DNA of 11,898 bases, taken from IMG/VR virus record IMGVR_UViG_3300045988_036506; one strand, 5' to 3'. Below, one piece after another: positions 1 through 11,898 of this stretch. The stretch's first letter is position 1. Every line of letters starts with the position of its first letter. Both the position numbers and the translations under genes were made by a program. Below the pieces are notes generated by a model that saw nothing but the letters and a program-made list of their open reading frames with translations, searched no databases and was not told the origin of the DNA. This stretch comes from a virus.

Positions 1-62
1 AAAGGTACACTAGGCACCCAAATTTAACATTTCCCAACAAAATTTAACTCTAATTAAAACAG

Positions 63-164
63 TTTGGCACGCTTTTTGCTGCGAGCCGGATTTACGATTC
101 TTTAACACACTTTGGCACACTTTGGCACGCTTTTTGCTGCGAGCCGGATTTACGATTCTTTAAC
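63..164. repeat. 44-bp perfect direct repeat inside the ITR, 2 copies (63..106 and 121..164); mirrored at 11735..11836
   Basis: TTTGGCACGCTTTTTGCTGCGAGCCGGATTTACGATTCTTTAAC is read twice. A third partial TTTGGCAC lies at 111..118 between the copies. Confidence 0.95.
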
Positions 165-218
165 GCATTTAACGCATTTAACACATTTAACACATTTAAC
201 ACATTTAACACATTTAGC
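165..218. repeat. 9-bp tandem repeat array, 6 units, inside the ITR; mirrored at 11681..11734
   Basis: The units are GCATTTAAC x2, ACATTTAAC x3 and ACATTTAGC x1, head to tail. Isolated ATTTAAC copies also occur at 22..28 and 42..48. Confidence 0.95.
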
Positions 219-258
219 ACACCGTTACTTTTGTTAAACTTTCACAAAAATAATGTTT

Positions 259-308
259 CAAATGTTTCACGTGGAACAGTGGCGACAAATGTTTCACGTG
301 AAACAAAT
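259..308. promoter_or_regulatory. Two copies of the CACGTG-centred motif (reverse complement of CACGTGAAACATTT) in ITR-L, a putative protein-binding site
   Basis: CAAATGTTTCACGTGGAACA lies at 259..278 and AAATGTTTCACGTGAAACAAATG at 288..308. GTTTCACGTGAAAC at 291..304 is a perfect 14-bp palindrome. The two cores are 27 bp apart and lie about 60-110 bp upstream of the left promoter. Confidence 0.6.
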
Positions 309-367
309 GAGGGGTGAATTGTTAAAAAGATTAAAATTAAAACTTTTACACTATTTAACAAAAATAA

Positions 368-399
368 TTTGGTGGTTTCGTAAAAAAGTCGTATCTTTG
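368..399 (+). promoter_or_regulatory. Left-arm promoter, Bacteroidota sigma-A type (-33 TTTG, -7 TAtcTTTG)
   Basis: TTTG lies at 368..371, followed by a 20-nt spacer and TATCTTTG at 392..399. This matches the published Bacteroides consensus TTTG/TAnnTTTG. A near-identical copy sits at the right end and a third at 6637..6668. Confidence 0.65.
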
Positions 400-4774: not shown

Positions 4775-5344
4775 TTAATAAATATCTATTGTTAACTCTT
4801 TTGCAAGTTCTGCGATAACTTGCATTTTGAAATTTGTTCTTCTGAGAATCATTTCTTTTTGAACAATTTCACTAACAGGAACACCATTCGGCAAACTGTT
4901 CTTAACAGTTGTTTTCGTGCTCGTTTCTTGTCGGTTTCCTGTGGAATCTCTTTGCTGCTTTGTGTCATTTCCGAAATCTCCATTATTAAACGTTACACTT
5001 GAATCGACCGTGCTATTATTACCTGTTTCGTCAACGGTGTTATTTGTTGTTTCCGTCAACTTTTCAGTAACAGGGTTTAATGGGTCATATTCGTTATTAA
5101 ACACTTGAATTTGTTTTTGCCATTCGTCAAACTTAACTGCTATGATACTTTTTACAATATCATTTGCAGTTTCGGGCGTAACGGCATTTACCAGCGTTCT
5201 GTTTCCATATTTGAAACGAAAATCAATATCAATCAAAAGCGGGTCATCTTCATTAAATATTGATTTGTACAAAGCAGGAAACAGGGGTTTAAAGATTTTT
5301 TCAAACAAACCATTTTCACCCGTGAAAAGTTCATTAATTGTCAT
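4775..5344 (-). CDS. Structural-module protein (189 aa), possibly a scaffolding or head-completion protein
   Basis: It lies between the portal and capsid genes, the canonical scaffold position. The middle is polar and low-complexity (N/T/S/D/Q-rich). The start overlaps the portal stop by 11 nt. No diagnostic motif was found. Confidence 0.55.
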   Translation of the reverse strand: MTINELFTGENGLFEKIFKPLFPALYKSIFNEDDPLLIDIDFRFKYGNRTLVNAVTPETANDIVKSIIAVKFDEWQKQIQVFNNEYDPLNPVTEKLTETTNNTVDETGNNSTVDSSVTFNNGDFGNDTKQQRDSTGNRQETSTKTTVKNSLPNGVPVSEIVQKEMILRRTNFKMQVIAELAKELTIDIY

Positions 5345-6410
5345 CTTTGTTTTCTTTTTCTTCTTTTTCTTCTGTTTCTTCTGTTTCCGTTTCTGTTTCT
5401 TCTGTTTCTGTTTCTGTTTCTTCTGTTTCTTCTGTTTCTTCTGTTTCTGTTTCCGTTTCTTCTGTTTCTTGCGTTTCTTCTGTTTCGTTTTCCGTTACAG
5501 TGTCAACGTCTTCTGTATCGGTGTGGTCGTGCCCGTCTTCTGTGGCTTTGAGCAACGATAAATAATTTTCGTGTTCAATCTTCCAGCTAGACCCCAAAGT
5601 TACGGTTATGTCCGTGCCGAACATTTCGTTAACACGTTTCACACCCTCAACACGTTCATTTAGCATTGAATCAACGAACGGCATTAAAGCGTCAATATTC
5701 ATTGAAACCTCTTGCGTGTTCAAACGTTCACGTTTCATATTATAGTTTGCATTCAAACCTAAATCGTTGAACATTGATGCTTTGTAATACTGCAAAAGTT
5801 CAATTAATTGCCCGATTTGCTGGTTTCCCTGTGTCGGTGGGGTCTGCAGGTTAACACCTTTGAAAAAGGCATTTTCCCCGATTACTGAGAAATCACCGTT
5901 CAAAATCTTCTGCAAAAAAGATTCTGCGCTTTGTTTTGTTTTATCATCACTAGCAGAAATAAGCATTGTGATTCTAGTTAAAATACTAGCCAAATTAAGC
6001 GTTATTGTTGCGTCGGTGTAAAGAACGCCATATTTGCCAATTAACGGCAAAAGTGAATCTGCAAACGGTGTGTTGTTGATAACGACAATATCGGAATCAA
6101 TTTTAAACGTTTTGTTCACATTCAACCACGGGTTTGCTACAACGTAATATTTGCCGTGATAATAGGCATCACATTCACCAACCCGTGTTCCATTCAGTGC
6201 ATACAGTTCACCGTTCACTTCTGCTATTCCAACGTTACCCGATGTCTGCAGAATCTTTTCAAGTTCAACGGGCGGCATCGTTTCGGGTGCGCCCGTATAT
6301 TCAAACATCCTTGAAGTCATACAAAGAACTCGTTGCATAAACGTGAATAATGCTGAATCTTTGTTTTTAACTTCTGTTTGATACCTGTTGTATAAGTTTT
6401 CTTTCTCCAT
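5334..6410 (-). CDS. Portal (head-tail connector) protein, phi29 gp10-like, with an acidic Glu/Thr repeat C-terminal tail
   Basis: [31 protein letters not shown] resembles phi29 gp10 [57 protein letters not shown] resembles [26 protein letters not shown]. Both phi29 strings are recalled from memory. The last ~60 aa read ...[52 protein letters not shown]. Confidence 0.85.
   Translation of the reverse strand: [358 protein letters not shown]
5345..5490. repeat. Imperfect GTTTCT / TCT (6- and 3-nt) tandem repeat tract encoding the portal acidic tail
   Basis: The plus strand reads ...ttctgtttcttctgtttccgtttctgtttcttctgtttctgtttctgtttcttctgtttc.... It also generates the spurious F/C-rich and S/V-rich plus-strand ORFs 5142..5561 and 5338..5565. 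Confidence 0.9.
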
Positions 6411-6636: not shown

Positions 6637-6668
6637 CAAAGATAATACTATTATTTGGTATTACCAAA
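6637..6668 (-). promoter_or_regulatory. Late (structural-operon) promoter, Bacteroidota sigma-A type
   Basis: The minus strand reads TTTG (6668..6665), a 20-nt spacer, then TATCTTTG (6644..6637), followed by CATCGT. Spacing and the extended -7 box (TATCTTTGCAnCGT) match the two terminal promoters. The -33 box lies within the 21-bp palindrome at 6651..6671. Confidence 0.65.
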
Positions 6669-6671
6669 TAA

Positions 6672-6715
6672 AACGGGGGAAAAGTGTTCCACGTGAAACA
6701 TTTTTAACCCCCGTT
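6672..6715 (-). terminator. Terminator hairpin after the early operon, with a CACGTGAAACATTT motif copy embedded in the stem
   Basis: AACGGGGG (6672..6679) pairs with CCCCCGTT (6708..6715). The interior TGTTCCACGTGAAACA is largely self-complementary. On the minus strand the hairpin is followed by UUAUUUGG. It lies 9 nt after the ATPase stop codon. Confidence 0.7.
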
Positions 6716-6723
6716 AACAGATA

Positions 6724-7863
6724 TTAAGTAATAATGTTACTTCTTGCGCTTGCCATCAAGTAATTACGCACAATTTCACCTATTTCGTTATTTTGATAAA
6801 ATACCTTATCGGTTGCGAAATACTTCGTTATCTGAGATTCTACAAACGTTGCATTGCTCAACAACTTTCGCTTATAGTTCGGCTTGCCGTTCATCTGCAG
6901 CGAATAAATCAAACTGTTGTCCGTGTCCTTAATCGGGGTTGTCTTGCTGTGAATGTAAATGAAGTTATTCACCCCCGTTTCTTCGTCTTCCAACTGAATA
7001 ACGTTGCCCTGTAAGGTCATTTCGTTAAACTGAATGTAAAAGACAAACAATACGTCATTCGGTTTGTATTTTACAGGCAAATGGGGATATGCAGCGAGTT
7101 CCCATTTACCGCCCGTAATCATTTGCAAATTCTCATTGTCGAAACAGAAATACTTGTTGCTCGCCTTGTGCTTGACAATCGTGCTGCAATATTCTACTGC
7201 AACGGTTGCACCGTGTTCACCGAATTTATAAATATCTATTGTTCCCTGTTCCATTGCACGAACTTGTTTCAATCCCATTTCTGAGAAATACGGGCAAAAC
7301 TGATTCACGGTGTTACCCAGCATAAAAACTTTAACATCGTTTCTCTGTCGAATAATCGTGCTTAACAGGTTCATATACAGCATAAATTCATCGGGTAAAT
7401 AATAACGTCTTGTCAGGAACTCATCAAATACCACGGTTGTTATATTCGGGTAACTGCTGGATTTTTCGTGTTCCTGTTCTGATAAACAGAAACCAAAACA
7501 AAACGGGGTGCTGTCGGGTACACGTTTCTTTGTTTCGGCATCGTAGGACGAAAGAAACCATTTACCCGAAATATAAAACACTTCGTTAAACTTACCACCT
7601 GTCAGTTCCTGTATTACGCCATTTGCAACGTGATTTGAAAACAGACTTTCGGCACGTTTGCCCCTTAAATCTTCGCGCCATCTACGAATATACGCCATTT
7701 GCTTTCCTGTGCGCAAATATTCTTTGATGCCATACAATAACGTTGCATACGTTTTACCGTTGGAACGTTCACCAAAAATAACGTTGTAATCGGCATTCTT
7801 TGATAAAATGCGATTCAACGTGTAAAATTTCGGCGTTTCTACATTTTCTTTCTTCTGTTTCAT
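6724..7863 (-). CDS. DNA encapsidation (packaging) ATPase, phi29 gp16-like
   Basis: Walker A is FGERSNGKTYA (nt 7750..7773 encode GERSNGKT). Walker B is PNITTVVFDEFL. MAYIRRWREDL, SSSYPNITTVVFDEF and LPDEFMLYMNLLSTIIRQRNDVKVFMLGNTVNQFCPYF are collinear with phi29 gp16 FIYVRRYKPEL, SNAYPNVSTIVFDEF and IPNEVSALLNLMDTVFRNRERVRCICLSNAVSVVNPYF, recalled from memory. Confidence 0.9.
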   Translation of the reverse strand: MKQKKENVETPKFYTLNRILSKNADYNVIFGERSNGKTYATLLYGIKEYLRTGKQMAYIRRWREDLRGKRAESLFSNHVANGVIQELTGGKFNEVFYISGKWFLSSYDAETKKRVPDSTPFCFGFCLSEQEHEKSSSYPNITTVVFDEFLTRRYYLPDEFMLYMNLLSTIIRQRNDVKVFMLGNTVNQFCPYFSEMGLKQVRAMEQGTIDIYKFGEHGATVAVEYCSTIVKHKASNKYFCFDNENLQMITGGKWELAAYPHLPVKYKPNDVLFVFYIQFNEMTLQGNVIQLEDEETGVNNFIYIHSKTTPIKDTDNSLIYSLQMNGKPNYKRKLLSNATFVESQITKYFATDKVFYQNNEIGEIVRNYLMASARSNIIT

Positions 7864-7864
7864 A

Positions 7865-10072
7865 TTATTCTTTCTTTAATCTGATTCCCATTAAATAATT
7901 AATATAAAGAACTGAAAGACTTAAAGTGTACCCCGTTGGCTCTAAGTGAACACCAGTTAACGTGTCGTAACTTGAAACCGTACCTTTGTAATCTTTTATC
8001 GTTCCCGTCTGTTCATAATCAATATATGTGTGAATGTTCTTACCTGTTGCCGATGGCGGTATATCTAGATAATTTGTGAATGCGTCAAATATCCCACTTT
8101 CACCAAACGTTTCTAACATATACGGGATAGCAGATTTTTTGTTAACGCCCGAAACGGTCATTGAGTAATCGTAATCTTTGCCGTTTACTGTAAGGGCGTT
8201 TTCTTCCTGTACCATATAGCGTTTTGCACCTAAAGTTTTGAAACGGGTGTAACGCCCCTCATAGTCCCAAACCCCCAACGGTTTTGCGATTCCCCTTATC
8301 GTGACGGGTTCAACCTTTTCAAACGGTATTTTATGATGCTTACAGGCGGCACGTAATTTTCTTTGCGCTAAATCGTTGTAGGCCTTGAAATATTCTTTGT
8401 GTGCATCACCGTTCATTATTTTAACGGAATCTGTGTCACTGTATATGTAATCGTCACCACATTCCGAAATACCCGTAAAAAGGTTGCGTCTGGCATAAGC
8501 GGTAACATAAATACCCCACGGGTAAAACAAAAAGCGGTTTTTACTATCATTATATTTATTTAGCATTACTAATTGTTTTTCGCCTGTAAGGTGTTCAATA
8601 TCCCACGTTTCACCATCACATAAAATTTCATCACGCAACGGGTTTGTAACACACATACCGTAACAACTGTTCAGCATTTCTTTGCTATTCAAATACTCAA
8701 CCTCTTTTCCCTTAACACCTTTTAATTTTGTTTTCATTTCATACAGGTGCAGAATAGATTCTACAAATTCGGTCGGCAAATATTCTTTTCGGTAGCATAT
8801 CATTCGCCCGATTCTTATTTGTTCCCACGTGTAAAACTGTGAAAACACTTTGTAATCTATTTCTGTAATAGTCATACATATTTTCTTAGCACAAACCAAA
8901 CGCCCGTTGTTTTCGGAAACATTTTCTTTCACGAAGCATTTACTAACAGAAATTGGATTCTCGTTTTCTGATTTTGCAAAAATGTTTGTTATCTCTACAT
9001 CAAACACGCAACAGAATTTACTACACATAAACTCAAATTGTTTCATTGATTTAACAGGAACAACAACACCCGTGCTCATCGGAAACTTTTCTGAAACCAT
9101 CACATACGGGTAACTACTGGTAAAATCGTAACTGTCTACGTTTTCTATAACTTCATCGGTATATTTTGCGTTGGCGTGTGTAAAACCGCCCGAAAACGCC
9201 CGTTGTAACATTGCAAATTCTTCCATACCTGTTATATTCAAAGAATGAATCTTATCAATGTATTTAAAGTTTGGAATCGTTTTGCCTGTTTCGTCAGTTG
9301 CCTTAAAACATACCGAACGGCAATATTTACGCACAAACCCCGTTTTTGTAACCGGTAAACGTGTTATTCCTTTGTACTGTTCGATTAATTCCTGTATGTA
9401 ACACATCACCACTTTTATATCATTCAAGCAATAACCAATTTCTTTTTGCGTTAACGGTGTTCTACTGTGACGTAACAAACTGTAATCTAAATCACCTACC
9501 AACTTTTCACATTTATATTTGTGAAGCTGTTCACCCAATTTCGCCAACGAATAACCCGAAAGCAAATAAGAACATCGGAACTCTAGACCCGTTTTTGTTA
9601 CACCGTAAATCGGTTTACGCAAATCTATTGAGAAAACTTTTTCCCAATCTAACATTTCACGGAAAAATTGGAACTCGTATGCCAAATTGTGAACGTATAT
9701 GATAATGCGTTTCTTTGGGCAAAGTTTCAATATATCCACGATTTCGGATAACATTTGCAAAAATTCATCCCACGTTCTGCCAATTATGCAAAAACCGTTT
9801 ATTCCAAATTGCCAAACATACATTAAAGAACATTTTTCCATTTTGGTTTGCTTGCCGCCTAATTTCATATAACGTTCGTAACTGTATGTTTCCCCGTCTT
9901 CATCCCTGTAAAATGAAGTTGTTTCAATATCGAAAGATACAGGCACGTTTAAGAACTTTTCGCCCTTATTGTTGCCTGTAAAATTCTTTTCATTCACCGC
10001 CAAAGATAAAACCTTTGCAATATCTTTAGGCGTGTAAATTTCTGTATGTAGTTCAAAGGGTATTTTCTTCAT
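7865..10072 (-). CDS. Protein-primed family-B DNA polymerase (735 aa)
   Basis: All hallmark motifs are present in order. They are ExoI FDIETT (D48/E50), ExoII HNLAYEFQF (N129), ExoIII YCLNDIK (Y214/D218), FSGGF (the YxGG/A equivalent), motif A DFTSSYP (D316), motif B KEMLNSCYG (K464), motif C YSDTDS (nt 8426..8443, checked against the DNA) and KxY as GAKRYM (K617). Long inserts between motifs A-B and B-C fit TPR1/TPR2-type regions. Confidence 0.95.
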   Translation of the reverse strand: MKKIPFELHTEIYTPKDIAKVLSLAVNEKNFTGNNKGEKFLNVPVSFDIETTSFYRDEDGETYSYERYMKLGGKQTKMEKCSLMYVWQFGINGFCIIGRTWDEFLQMLSEIVDILKLCPKKRIIIYVHNLAYEFQFFREMLDWEKVFSIDLRKPIYGVTKTGLEFRCSYLLSGYSLAKLGEQLHKYKCEKLVGDLDYSLLRHSRTPLTQKEIGYCLNDIKVVMCYIQELIEQYKGITRLPVTKTGFVRKYCRSVCFKATDETGKTIPNFKYIDKIHSLNITGMEEFAMLQRAFSGGFTHANAKYTDEVIENVDSYDFTSSYPYVMVSEKFPMSTGVVVPVKSMKQFEFMCSKFCCVFDVEITNIFAKSENENPISVSKCFVKENVSENNGRLVCAKKICMTITEIDYKVFSQFYTWEQIRIGRMICYRKEYLPTEFVESILHLYEMKTKLKGVKGKEVEYLNSKEMLNSCYGMCVTNPLRDEILCDGETWDIEHLTGEKQLVMLNKYNDSKNRFLFYPWGIYVTAYARRNLFTGISECGDDYIYSDTDSVKIMNGDAHKEYFKAYNDLAQRKLRAACKHHKIPFEKVEPVTIRGIAKPLGVWDYEGRYTRFKTLGAKRYMVQEENALTVNGKDYDYSMTVSGVNKKSAIPYMLETFGESGIFDAFTNYLDIPPSATGKNIHTYIDYEQTGTIKDYKGTVSSYDTLTGVHLEPTGYTLSLSVLYINYLMGIRLKKE

Positions 10073-10743
10073 TATAAACCAAATTTTTCAAATTCTGATA
10101 GAATCTTTTTTAACGGTTCATCCGTTTTGAAATGGTCAACACCGTTCACGAAAGCCTCTGAATTCGGGTCTTTTGCTATTTGTTCGATAGCTGCATCTAA
10201 GGCGTTTTCAATTTTAACGGCATCGTCTTCGATTTGGTCGGACACGTCACGGGATTCTTGTTCAAGTTCACCCGTAAAATCTTTGTATTGCATTAAGTAT
10301 TGTTCCAAAAATCGTTCATCGGAAACACTTGCAATTTTACCCATCAATTTGTCTTGCATCAACTTAAATTCTTCATCATTTAATTTGTAAGACTTCTTTA
10401 AATGGTTTGAATATTCACGTGTACCACTTGCCGTTGATGTAGGCTGTTGCAAAAATGAAATCGCTTTGGAATATTCGATTTTTAAATCGTTCCAATCGTG
10501 TTTCATCGAAAACTTTGTGAATCGCTTAATATCACCCTTATTTAACGCAACAACTGCGGGCGAAACAAAACCAGACCTTTCCACATTCTGAATGCGCCTG
10601 TTTGCCTGTTGAAACACACGGGCGATTTCTTTGCGCAAATAGCCACGGGATTCTATTGCATCCATAATTTGCTTGTCAACGTGTATTTTTGCCGTTGATG
10701 CAAACGTTCTTTTTGAAAACCCAATCGGATTTAACTTTGCCAT
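10072..10743 (-). CDS. Putative terminal protein (223 aa)
   Basis: It lies immediately upstream of the polymerase, with a 1-nt stop/start overlap, as in phi29 gene 3 and gene 2. The N-terminal half is basic and the C-terminal half strongly acidic (ELEQESRDVSDQIEDDAVKIE...). The C-terminus KILSEFEKFGL recalls phi29 TP KILSYLEQY...KGF. Similarity is weak and recalled, and the priming residue is not identified. Confidence 0.6.
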   Translation of the reverse strand: MAKLNPIGFSKRTFASTAKIHVDKQIMDAIESRGYLRKEIARVFQQANRRIQNVERSGFVSPAVVALNKGDIKRFTKFSMKHDWNDLKIEYSKAISFLQQPTSTASGTREYSNHLKKSYKLNDEEFKLMQDKLMGKIASVSDERFLEQYLMQYKDFTGELEQESRDVSDQIEDDAVKIENALDAAIEQIAKDPNSEAFVNGVDHFKTDEPLKKILSEFEKFGL

Positions 10744-11469: not shown

Positions 11470-11501
11470 CAAAGATACAACGATTTTGCGAAACCACCAA
11501 A
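11470..11501 (-). promoter_or_regulatory. Right-arm early promoter, Bacteroidota sigma-A type
   Basis: The minus strand reads TTTG (11501..11498), a 20-nt spacer, then TATCTTTG (11477..11470), followed by CACCGTG. The 53-nt block 11463..11515 matches 354..406 at 47 of 53 positions in inverted orientation. Confidence 0.65.
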
Positions 11502-11557
11502 TTATTTTCGTTAAAAAGTCTTAAAGAAATAAATTAACTGTTGTTAACACTTGTAAC

Positions 11558-11640
11558 GGTCCACGTGAAACATTTGTAACATCACCCCTCATTTGTTTCA
11601 CGTGAAACATTTGTCGCCACTGTTCCACGTGAAACATTTG
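11558..11640. promoter_or_regulatory. Three copies of the CACGTGAAACATTT motif at the right end, one outside the ITR
   Basis: GGTCCACGTGAAACATTT lies at 11558..11575, inboard of the ITR boundary, with no counterpart on the left. The ITR copies lie at 11591..11611 and 11621..11640. The cores are at 11562, 11599 and 11626. Confidence 0.6.
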
Positions 11641-11898
11641 AAACATTATTTTTGTGAAAGTTTAACAAAAGTAACGGTGTGCTAAATGTGTTAAATGTGT
11701 TAAATGTGTTAAATGTGTTAAATGCGTTAAATGCGTTAAAGAATCGTAAATCCGGCTCGCAGCAAAAAGCGTGCCAAAGTGTGCCAAAGTGTGTTAAAGA
11801 ATCGTAAATCCGGCTCGCAGCAAAAAGCGTGCCAAACTGTTTTAATTAGAGTTAAATTTTGTTGGGAAATGTTAAATTTGGGTGCCTAGTGTACCTTT
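11582..11898. repeat. Right inverted terminal repeat (ITR-R), 317 bp
   Basis: It is the exact reverse complement of 1..317. It contains the mirrored 9-bp array (11681..11734) and the mirrored 44-bp direct repeats (11735..11778 and 11793..11836). Confidence 0.97.

Follow-up and report, generated by a model that had tools for sequence, protein, structure and literature searches.

Conserved sub-terminal modules and canonical parS sites in the inverted terminal repeats of a phi29-like phage genome

IMG/VR record IMGVR_UViG_3300045988_036506 (hereafter the window, meaning the whole stretch of DNA analysed, 11,898 bp) is the complete linear genome of a small phi29-like gut podophage, with a perfect inverted terminal repeat (ITR) that is itself filled with shorter repeats. 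On balance, we lean towards reading this ITR as a composite of three functional zones, in which the most striking repeats are recent expansions of conserved cis-elements. For the outer repeats we rank an end-related auxiliary-origin function first and a sigma-54 promoter function second, because the principal box is retained even at ends that lack an inward gene and hardly ever occurs in genome interiors. An initial annotation, made from the letters of the window, had suggested an iteron or origin organisation for the whole ITR. The outer layers do behave as origin-associated, iteron-like modules, whereas the inner layer of CACGTG sites is parS, the site bound by the chromosomal protein ParB.

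A search of IMG/VR returned at least 107 contigs with a family B DNA polymerase (PolB) 89-99% identical to that of the window, and a scan of the same database for the terminal motif brought in further clades with PolB ~79%, 68% and 65% identical, which we name by these values. The comparison set comprises about 110 related genomes (PolB 65-99% identical; single contigs are cited by L numbers). They share one terminal plan: AAA, ~20 clade-specific nucleotides, a series of invariant boxes and a variable zone of TTAAC units. We made a phylogenetic footprint from an alignment of 40 unique ends, taken from relatives that had been selected by PolB and thus independently of the motif. Positions 1-10, 15-17, 23-38 (TTTAACATTTCCCAAC), 44-49 (TTTAAC) and 56-78 (TAACACACTTTGGCACGCTTTTTG) are at least 95% conserved; positions 18-22, 39-43 and 50-55 vary freely. 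In the 65%, 68% and 79% clades the distance of the TTTAACATTTCCCAAC box from the end is unchanged. The 65-79% clades hold matching boxes at matching distances, while the putative terminal protein is 51-57% and a 121-aa early protein 32-82% identical between them, and a 55-aa early gene is absent from the 65% clade.

The principal box, at 63-80 in the window, has the family consensus TTTGGCACGsTTTTTGY. Its TGGCAC-N5-TTG(C/T) core stands at position 65/66 in 180/182 unique family ends, has no reversed copies, and finds 6 interior matches in 1.18 Mb of genomes. The family range is 1-6 boxes per end, with 2-6 at 69 of the unique ends; successive boxes are 58 bp and then 48-50 bp apart (68 bp in L052), and L164 carries six tandem modules. 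TTAAC begins 21 nt upstream of TGGCAC in 87/120 unique boxes, and an inverted GGCAC...GTGCC partner beside the box, at a spacing that varies, is enriched (62/120 versus 15/120 shuffled). The AAC/CAC and TTT motifs of the terminal 80 bp have a period of 10.25-10.75 bp, in the window (z-score 7-9) as well as in the average of 103 relatives. Comparison of related ITRs, which had been recommended with the initial annotation as a check on its proposal, identifies the outer sub-repeats as conserved motifs with one orientation, a fixed distance from the end and a variable copy number. All genes of the 65% clade run in one direction, and the end distal to polB has neither an inward gene nor a TAnnTTTG promoter. 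This end nevertheless keeps two boxes, which face the 3' end of a converging gene, the second lying beyond the 101-nt perfect ITR.

The terminal repeats of the window are far beyond chance. The longest exact direct repeat in 1-317 measures 44 nt, whereas 300 dinucleotide shuffles gave 9.4 nt on average and never more than 17, and 1-220 contains nine TTTAAC and zero GTTAAA where 0.52 would be expected (interior density 1.2 per kb per strand). Most of the repeats listed initially are present as described: the perfect 44-bp direct repeat with a period of 58, the TTTGGCAC starts at 63, 111 and 121, and the six (G/A)CATTTA(A/G)C units at 165-218. One entry needs correction, in that the first of two AAATTTAAC boxes is indeed at 20-28 but the second is at 40-48 instead of 41-49, so that they are 20 and not 21 bp apart. 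Tandem Repeats Finder (TRF) reports 7.0 copies of TTTAACACA at 159-221, with 96% matches.

Comparison with relatives indicates that conserved modules expanded recently to give the 44-bp repeat and the 9-bp array. A single 44-bp copy is found in L001 (99% PolB) and most close relatives; since the second copy in the window is absent from these genomes and identical to the first, it appears to be a recent lineage-specific duplication, a copy-number variant and not a fixed layer. It occupies the family's standard 58-bp position, a spacing also seen in the 68% clade, and searches of IMG/VR and of JGI metagenome contigs did not find the duplication junction. In relatives, one to three TTAAC(A/G)C units occur, 9, 10 or 11 bp apart (29, 56 and 8 instances), and a few genomes have long arrays, with at least 10 units in L055 and at least 7 in L050, where an 18-bp pattern alternates. 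The distance from the terminus to the first palindrome or parS site ranges from 136 to 267 nt among relatives (median about 156), the window being longest with 267 nt. The 9-bp period had been likened to the phi29 p6 complex, with a protein spiralling around the DNA; the comparison does not support this idea, since the seven-unit array belongs to the window alone, spacings of 9, 10 and 11 bp occur together in relatives, and the conserved terminal 80 bp are phased differently. Neither that phasing nor the 9.0 bp of the window array agrees with the 12/24-bp periodicity of p6. The unit TTTAACACA also matches the DnaA-box consensus TTWTNCACA at 8/9 positions, a resemblance only, which we did not adopt.

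The assembled ends are the true physical ends of the DNA, because sequencing adapters abut the terminal AAA in 12 related contigs. A TruSeq adapter (...CTCTTCCGATCT) runs directly into AAAGGTAC in 11 contigs, and in one further contig, from the 65% clade, the adapter abuts AAATATGC; Nextera remnants occur 10-14 nt inward of the end. A contig in ENA also joins bacterial DNA to the phage exactly at the terminus, between ...gaatg and AAAGGTACAC. In this contig (ERZ27311769 k141_151061, L194, 22 kb) ~9.6 kb of bacterial DNA, with genes for ribonucleotide reductase, FolB, LicD and DUF6080, precedes the phage terminal AAAGGTACAC (9560-9640); most likely, the join arose when a free DNA end was ligated or assembled into a chimera. 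True ends lying elsewhere would have undermined the initial proposal, and the adapter junctions and the chimeric join place them at the AAA. The decamer at 1-10 is unchanged in 39/40 unique ends of close relatives. AAA opens the ends in every clade, though the bases that follow differ (AAAGGTACAC, AAAGGTACGC, AAATATGCAC) and bases 4-22 are clade-specific. Exactly three A are present at 47/72 assembled ends of the PolB-matched relatives (89-99%). Four to six A appear at some assembly ends (L006, L037, L045, L057, L063, L065, L080), which may be true length heterogeneity due to slippage at initiation, or else an artefact of the library or the assembly; wherever an adapter abuts the terminus itself the count is exactly three, and in L071 the adapter abuts GGTACAC, three bases in. 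Sliding-back initiation needs a terminal nucleotide that is reiterated at least 2x (PMC4974454), and the AAA kept in all clades is compatible with the sliding-back initiation proposed for the window.

The two 317-bp arms of the window are fully complementary, as first described, and past them the ends are still homologous (81% identical over 317-415). Among relatives the perfect ITR measures 61 to 922 nt. Expansions that fall inside the ITR are the same in both arms (the window, L052, L164, L055), and in genomes with a short perfect ITR, such as L078, the arrays of the two ends are unlike. Copying from the tips inward over variable lengths would suit such a pattern and may be how the arms are kept alike. 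Active homogenisation of the arms had been claimed from their perfect identity; the matched lineage-specific expansions and the moving ITR boundary support it, but arm identity in assemblies is itself weak evidence, because assemblers collapse repeats. A separate candidate, the ITR as a structured single strand or hairpin telomere, was rejected, with a DNA fold z-score of only -1.7 and an outer 220 nt that is essentially unpaired.

The two CACGTG sites listed initially are present, at 268 and 295, but they are canonical parS and do not belong to the origin or iteron series. We had considered them as operators of a phage regulator, an idea that gave way to parS when the full 16-mer became apparent: it is the site of chromosomal ParB/Spo0J and serves as the search consensus in the ParB literature. 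The window has 5 sites with at most 2 mismatches to the palindrome TGTTNCACGTGAAACA, compared with 0.02 expected, and both ITR sites are mirrored in the right arm (11594-11636). At the same threshold, 110/111 family genomes contain 1-8 sites, compared with one hit in total in 60 shuffled genomes. Their place depends on the clade: both at the termini and in mid-genome in the 68-99% clades, in mid-genome alone in the 79% clade, and 620-800 nt from the polymerase-proximal end in the 65% clade, with additional mid-genome sites in some genomes. Since positions differ in this way, parS is not specific to the ITR. We found no gene for a ParB-like protein, a partition ATPase or a centromere-binding protein in the phage; the partner is presumably a host ParB, which we predict is loaded at these sites. 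The mid-genome parS lies 24 bp upstream of the -33 element of the late promoter, within a GGGGG...CCCCC hairpin (-22.4 kcal/mol, z-score -3.4) followed by UUUUAUUU (6655-6725, minus strand). Placed behind the ATPase gene, the hairpin resembles an intrinsic terminator, and ParB bound there could disturb termination or the promoter, or be disturbed by them.

Canonical parS sites also occur in other small phages. The only INPHARED matches to the ITR came from phi29-like phages of Clostridium perfringens (phiCP7R (L204, 318-362), phiCPV4, CPS2 and the CPQ series), which carry a tandem pair of parS, likewise 27 bp apart, at the boundary of the polymerase and encapsidation genes. MT836125 (L084), a distant phi29-like gut phage, has two parS; we found none in Astrid and astrithr (Salmonella) or Phanie (Acinetobacter). 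phi29 itself is reported to have five, and Spo0J is implicated in trapping the phi29 genome in spores. One study reported ParABS homologues in each of its 12 gut bacteria, a Bacteroides among them.

Linear double-stranded DNA with ITRs, a PolB, a terminal AAA and defined physical ends suggests that the window is a protein-primed replicon of the phi29 type. A Rep-type initiator is not indicated: no Rep-like family was detected in any open reading frame (ORF) searched, and the replication genes are PolB and the putative terminal protein. From the comparisons above we infer the following division of labour. Zone 1 (1 to ~22), the AAA with its clade-specific sequence, would be the core origin read by the terminal protein/PolB pair, and its 3'-TTT template would let initiation slide back, by analogy with the biochemistry of the phi29 family. 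Zone 2 (23-80, repeated at 101-164), with its helix-phased rigid boxes TTTAAC-ATTT-CCCAAC, TTTAAC and, 21 nt after TTAAC, TTTGGCACGsTTTTTGY, would be an auxiliary origin at which a sequence-specific factor, encoded by phage or host, may aid assembly or opening of the end complex. The module (box plus TTAAC, 48-68 bp) and the TTAAC(A/G)C unit (9-11 bp) would grow and shrink by duplication and slippage, like iterons. Copy number would not be critical, viable relatives having 1-6 boxes and 1 to at least 10 units per end. Zone 3 (263-305), with two canonical parS, would load host ParB; these sites belong to a genome-wide intergenic set, not to the origin. End-to-end copying from the tips would keep the arms identical over a variable length.

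Several observations weigh against this model. Searches of Pfam, PHROGs and PDB sequences yielded no box-binding candidate among the putative terminal protein and the small early ORFs. For the 121-aa protein the AlphaFold2 model is poor (predicted local distance difference test score, 59) and has no Foldseek match; that of the 55-aa protein is a confident, plain helical hairpin with no informative match. These models are equally uninformative about a p6-like double-stranded-DNA-binding protein, for which Pfam and PHROGs gave no match in the small early ORFs. The Enterobacterial/Acinetobacter phages Astrid, astrithr and Phanie (PolB 45-46%) have different, shorter ITRs without the boxes, which are therefore family-specific; the astrithr-like ITR is 84 bp of sequence unrelated to that of the window. 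At about 105-150 of the pol-distal ends of L087, L138 and L158, the second TGGCAC box is one arm of a 13-bp stem (AATAGCGTACCAA...TTGGCACGCTATT) that continues into a T-run on the opposite strand, a terminator-like hairpin for the outward-running late operon; such a hairpin could explain why the 65% clade retains its second box. Most relatives are short-read metagenome assemblies, in which repeat copy number and arm identity may be distorted. Finally, the box is an exact sigma-54 consensus, so its role could lie in transcription or in binding a host factor rather than in replication.

Pursuing this last point, the TTTGGCACGsTTTTTGC boxes would be sigma-54 (RpoN) promoters firing inward once a host enhancer-binding protein is active, or docking sites that hold a stable closed holoenzyme complex near the end, and we regard this as a possible reading, though not a likely one. 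Both window boxes (65-79 and 123-137) read TGGCAC-GCTTT-TTGCT, an exact match to TGGCAC-N5-7-TTGCT; they always face inward and are essentially absent from interiors, and they have stayed constant while the early proteins of the phage drifted to 32-56% identity, as would suit a conserved host factor. A Bacteroidota host is indicated by the promoter type and by the missing Shine-Dalgarno sequences; sigma-54 regulons exist in that phylum, and the holoenzyme reportedly binds promoters in an inactive state (PMC4591121). A promoter, however, hardly accounts for boxes retained at ends without an inward gene, as in the 65% clade, or for up to six tandem copies, as in L164. The -12 C is T in 17% of first boxes (83% keep GC), and only ~1/3 of later boxes keep the C, whereas the TTT of the nominally free spacer is 98-100% conserved and the box stands at a fixed distance from the terminus, neither of which a promoter needs. 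The phage has no enhancer-binding protein gene, we found no obvious upstream activating sequence, and the only genome-bin links are to metagenome-assembled genomes (MAGs) of Gastranaerophilales; Cyanobacteria, the phylum grouped with that lineage, rarely carry rpoN.

Replication slippage and unequal exchange in non-coding terminal DNA might instead have left the repeats behind as by-products without function. Such an origin would suit the absence of the 44/58-bp duplication, the 106-133 partial duplication and 5/7 of the 9-bp units from L001 and most close relatives, as well as the free variation in copy number and in the distance from terminus to first parS (136-267 nt). It explains the copy count, but not the motifs: unit cores are conserved across clades down to 65% PolB while their flanks vary, orientation is absolute (0 reversed), and distances are fixed. 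We consider this explanation improbable.

Even less probable, in our estimate, is that the TTAAC/TGGCAC arrays and parS together form a partition or silencing complex, with the arrays acting as a roadblock for sliding ParB clamps or repressing terminal promoters, as phi29 p6 does on C2. The arrays do lie between parS and the free ends in the window and the 68-99% clades, ParB-CTP is described as accumulating only on closed DNA or behind protein roadblocks, and p6 is described as shutting off the end-proximal C2 promoter. Yet the 65% and 79% clades keep the boxes without parS near the ends, boxes occur at ends without a promoter, and the phage encodes neither a partition ATPase nor a centromere-binding protein. 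Finally, assembly artefact as the source of the layered repeats or the perfect arm identity is very improbable: collapsed ITRs would give identical arms regardless of biology, many related contigs have inverted ends of 55, 99, 119 or 141 nt that resemble assembly word sizes (a link we presume), and the window's duplication junction is absent from the metagenome contigs searched, but >100 independent assemblies, made in several projects, show this architecture, arm differences are resolved in L066, L078 and L094, the repeats (116 bp, 63 bp) fit within a read, and adapter junctions fix the ends.

The auxiliary-origin model has a precedent outside bacteria. Adenovirus replication is protein-primed; the ITR holds a core origin, followed at fixed distances by nuclear factor I (NFI) and Oct-1 sites, terminal reiteration lets the primer jump or slide back, and ITR length varies by type. 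The family described here likewise combines a proposed terminal core, candidate factor sites at fixed distances, terminal reiteration and a variable ITR length. It differs in that the box sequences are unrelated, the modules are tandem in 1-6 copies and the host is bacterial; the likeness of TTGGC...GCCAA to an NFI site is no more than a resemblance. With phi29 the window shares the major capsid protein, connector, gp16 ATPase, PolB, terminal AAA, an end-proximal early promoter and a sub-terminal region thought to help open the end. The phi29 ITR, however, is 6 bp long and that of the window 317 bp, and phi29 p6 binds with a 24-bp period and little sequence specificity, where this family has sequence-defined motifs in 10.5-bp phase. 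Both carry canonical chromosomal parS on a lytic phi29-like phage without its own ParB gene, and the tandem pair of Clostridium phage phiCP7R has the window's own spacing; unlike in phi29, two sites are inside the ITR and positions shift between clades. Spore entrapment cannot be their purpose here, because the likely host is a non-sporulating Gram-negative gut bacterium. Plasmid iterons offer another parallel, having a conserved core (~17 bp here), direct repeats in one orientation beside a presumed origin and a copy number that varies; unlike iteron plasmids, the phage has no Rep initiator gene, protein-primed initiation would occur at a DNA end, and spacing is 48-68 bp compared with ~22 bp. 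The boxes are like sigma-54 promoters in their exact -24/-12 elements (TGGCAC-N5-TTGCT) and unlike them in that they are tandem, keep a fixed distance to the terminus, often have T for the -12 C and occur even where an end offers nothing to transcribe.

Detailed dissection of protein-primed phage origins has been confined almost entirely to phi29, PRD1, Cp-1 and Bam35, phages whose sub-terminal DNA has little defined sequence content. This family offers a sequence-defined, helically phased and modular sub-terminal architecture, and its 1-6 copy variants are a natural deletion and amplification series for the proposed auxiliary-origin role in a bacterial protein-primed replicon. Identity with the sigma-54 consensus likewise provides a concrete hypothesis on host-factor use at phage DNA ends. 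Hijacking of host ParB may be a general trait, because parS recurs in Bacillus phi29, Clostridium phi29-like phages and the present family; if so, it would have consequences for the persistence of small phages in the gut. More speculatively, and we think this unlikely, the family's ends may be docking platforms for host chromosome machinery, where parS loads ParB, the boxes hold closed sigma-54 RNA polymerase, terminal protein caps and bound arrays retain the clamps, and the phage persists as a linear episome in a carrier state. If true, a nominally lytic phi29-like phage would be segregated in non-sporulating gut bacteria, a Gram-negative counterpart of phi29 spore entrapment.

Table 1. Terminal elements, parS sites, promoters and replication genes of the window
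Feature	Position	Strand	Remark
Left ITR, perfect arm	1..317	+	100% complementary to 11582-11898
Right ITR, mirror of 1-317	11582..11898	-	each element recurs at 11899 minus x
Terminal AAA and conserved decamer AAAGGTACAC	1..10	+	proposed core origin for terminal protein/PolB complex
Family-invariant box TTTAACATTTCCCAAC	23..38	+	near-invariant in PolB-selected relatives
Conserved TTTAAC	43..48	+	TTAAC starts 21 nt upstream of TGGCAC start of box 1
Box 1, TTTGGCACGCTTTTTGCT	63..80	+	TGGCAC 65-70, N5, TTGC 76-79; iteron-like core; exact sigma-54 -24/-12 consensus
44-bp repeat, copy 1	63..106	+	module: box, GGC..GCC inverted repeat and TTACGATTCTTTAAC
Extra partial TTTGGCAC	111..118	+	from 10-bp tandem duplication; no TTGC half; TRF 106-133, period 10, 2.8 copies
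44-bp repeat, copy 2, with box 2	121..164	+	TGGCAC 123-128, TTGC 134-137; 100% identical to 63-106; 58 bp from box 1
Seven tandem 9-bp units TTTAAC(A/G)CA	159..221	+	expanded array of the family's TTAAC unit
parS TGTTTCACGTGGAACA	263..278		1 mismatch to consensus
parS TGTTTCACGTGAAACA	290..305		perfect consensus; 27 bp after first
Mid-genome parS TGTTCCACGTGAAACA	6685..6700		1 mismatch; in terminator-like hairpin
Degenerate sixth parS-like site	11557..11572		3 mismatches; just beyond right ITR arm
Inward early promoter, Bacteroidota type, TTTG-N20-TATCTTTG	368..399	+	outside perfect ITR, in 81%-identical extension 317-415
Inward early promoter, TTTG-N20-TATCTTTG	11470..11501	-	pattern match, right end
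Late promoter, TTTG-N20-TATCTTTG	6637-6668	-	pattern match
Family B DNA polymerase, protein-priming clade	7865-10072	-	PF03175 DNA_pol_B_2, E 2.5e-16
Putative terminal protein, 223-aa ORF	10072-10743		adjoins polB start, as in phi29 and astrithr; assigned by position

Signals for the host conflict, Bacteroidota-type promoters and the absence of Shine-Dalgarno sequences standing against binning with Gastranaerophilales. The Bacteroidota -33/-7 consensus is TTTG/TAHHTTTG (PMC6847099), and the corresponding pattern has four matches in the window compared with 0.66 expected; no sigma-70-type promoter was found inside the ITR. A Shine-Dalgarno sequence precedes 0/14 genes, an absence typical of Bacteroidota. 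Among 185,579 species-representative genomes, the only matches were whole-phage contigs binned into three Candidatus Gastranaerophilales/Melainabacteria MAGs (L191-L193).

Pfam searches of the window proteins identified PolB, a gp16-type packaging ATPase, a phi29-type connector, a phi29-type major capsid protein and an M15 peptidase; the 223-aa putative terminal protein had no Pfam, PHROG or PDB sequence match. A search of INPHARED found no near-identical DNA, and the closest isolates are the ~11.5-kb Astrithrvirus phages of Salmonella and their relatives (PolB 42-46% identical). The exact PolB sequence of the window was not on record in our search, and the phage family is present in well over a thousand assemblies. 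Very many Logan assemblies have the phage on contigs of ~6.0-6.2 kb, roughly half a genome, which would suit an assembly break that keeps recurring, perhaps within the repeated parS/promoter segments. The plus strand of 5330-5508 is a long imperfect tandem repeat of 9/12/21 nt (TTCTGTTTC...); on the minus strand it codes for an acidic (T/E)-rich C-terminal tail of the connector (ETEETEETEETETETEE...) and overlaps the start of the next gene. A strong hairpin at 1466-1534, between the convergent genes for the M15 peptidase (plus strand) and a 510-aa tail protein (minus strand), is probably a bidirectional terminator. An Rfam search, covering for example a packaging RNA (pRNA) in the ITR, gave nothing relevant, only spurious microRNA and small RNA (CsrC) matches on this hairpin. 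In MT836125 (PolB 34%), which has Shine-Dalgarno sites, the first ~60 nt of both ends likewise contain sub-terminal direct repeats with TTAAC (TTAACGTGGTAAAGTG, about 2.5 copies), and such repeats may be common in small protein-primed phages.

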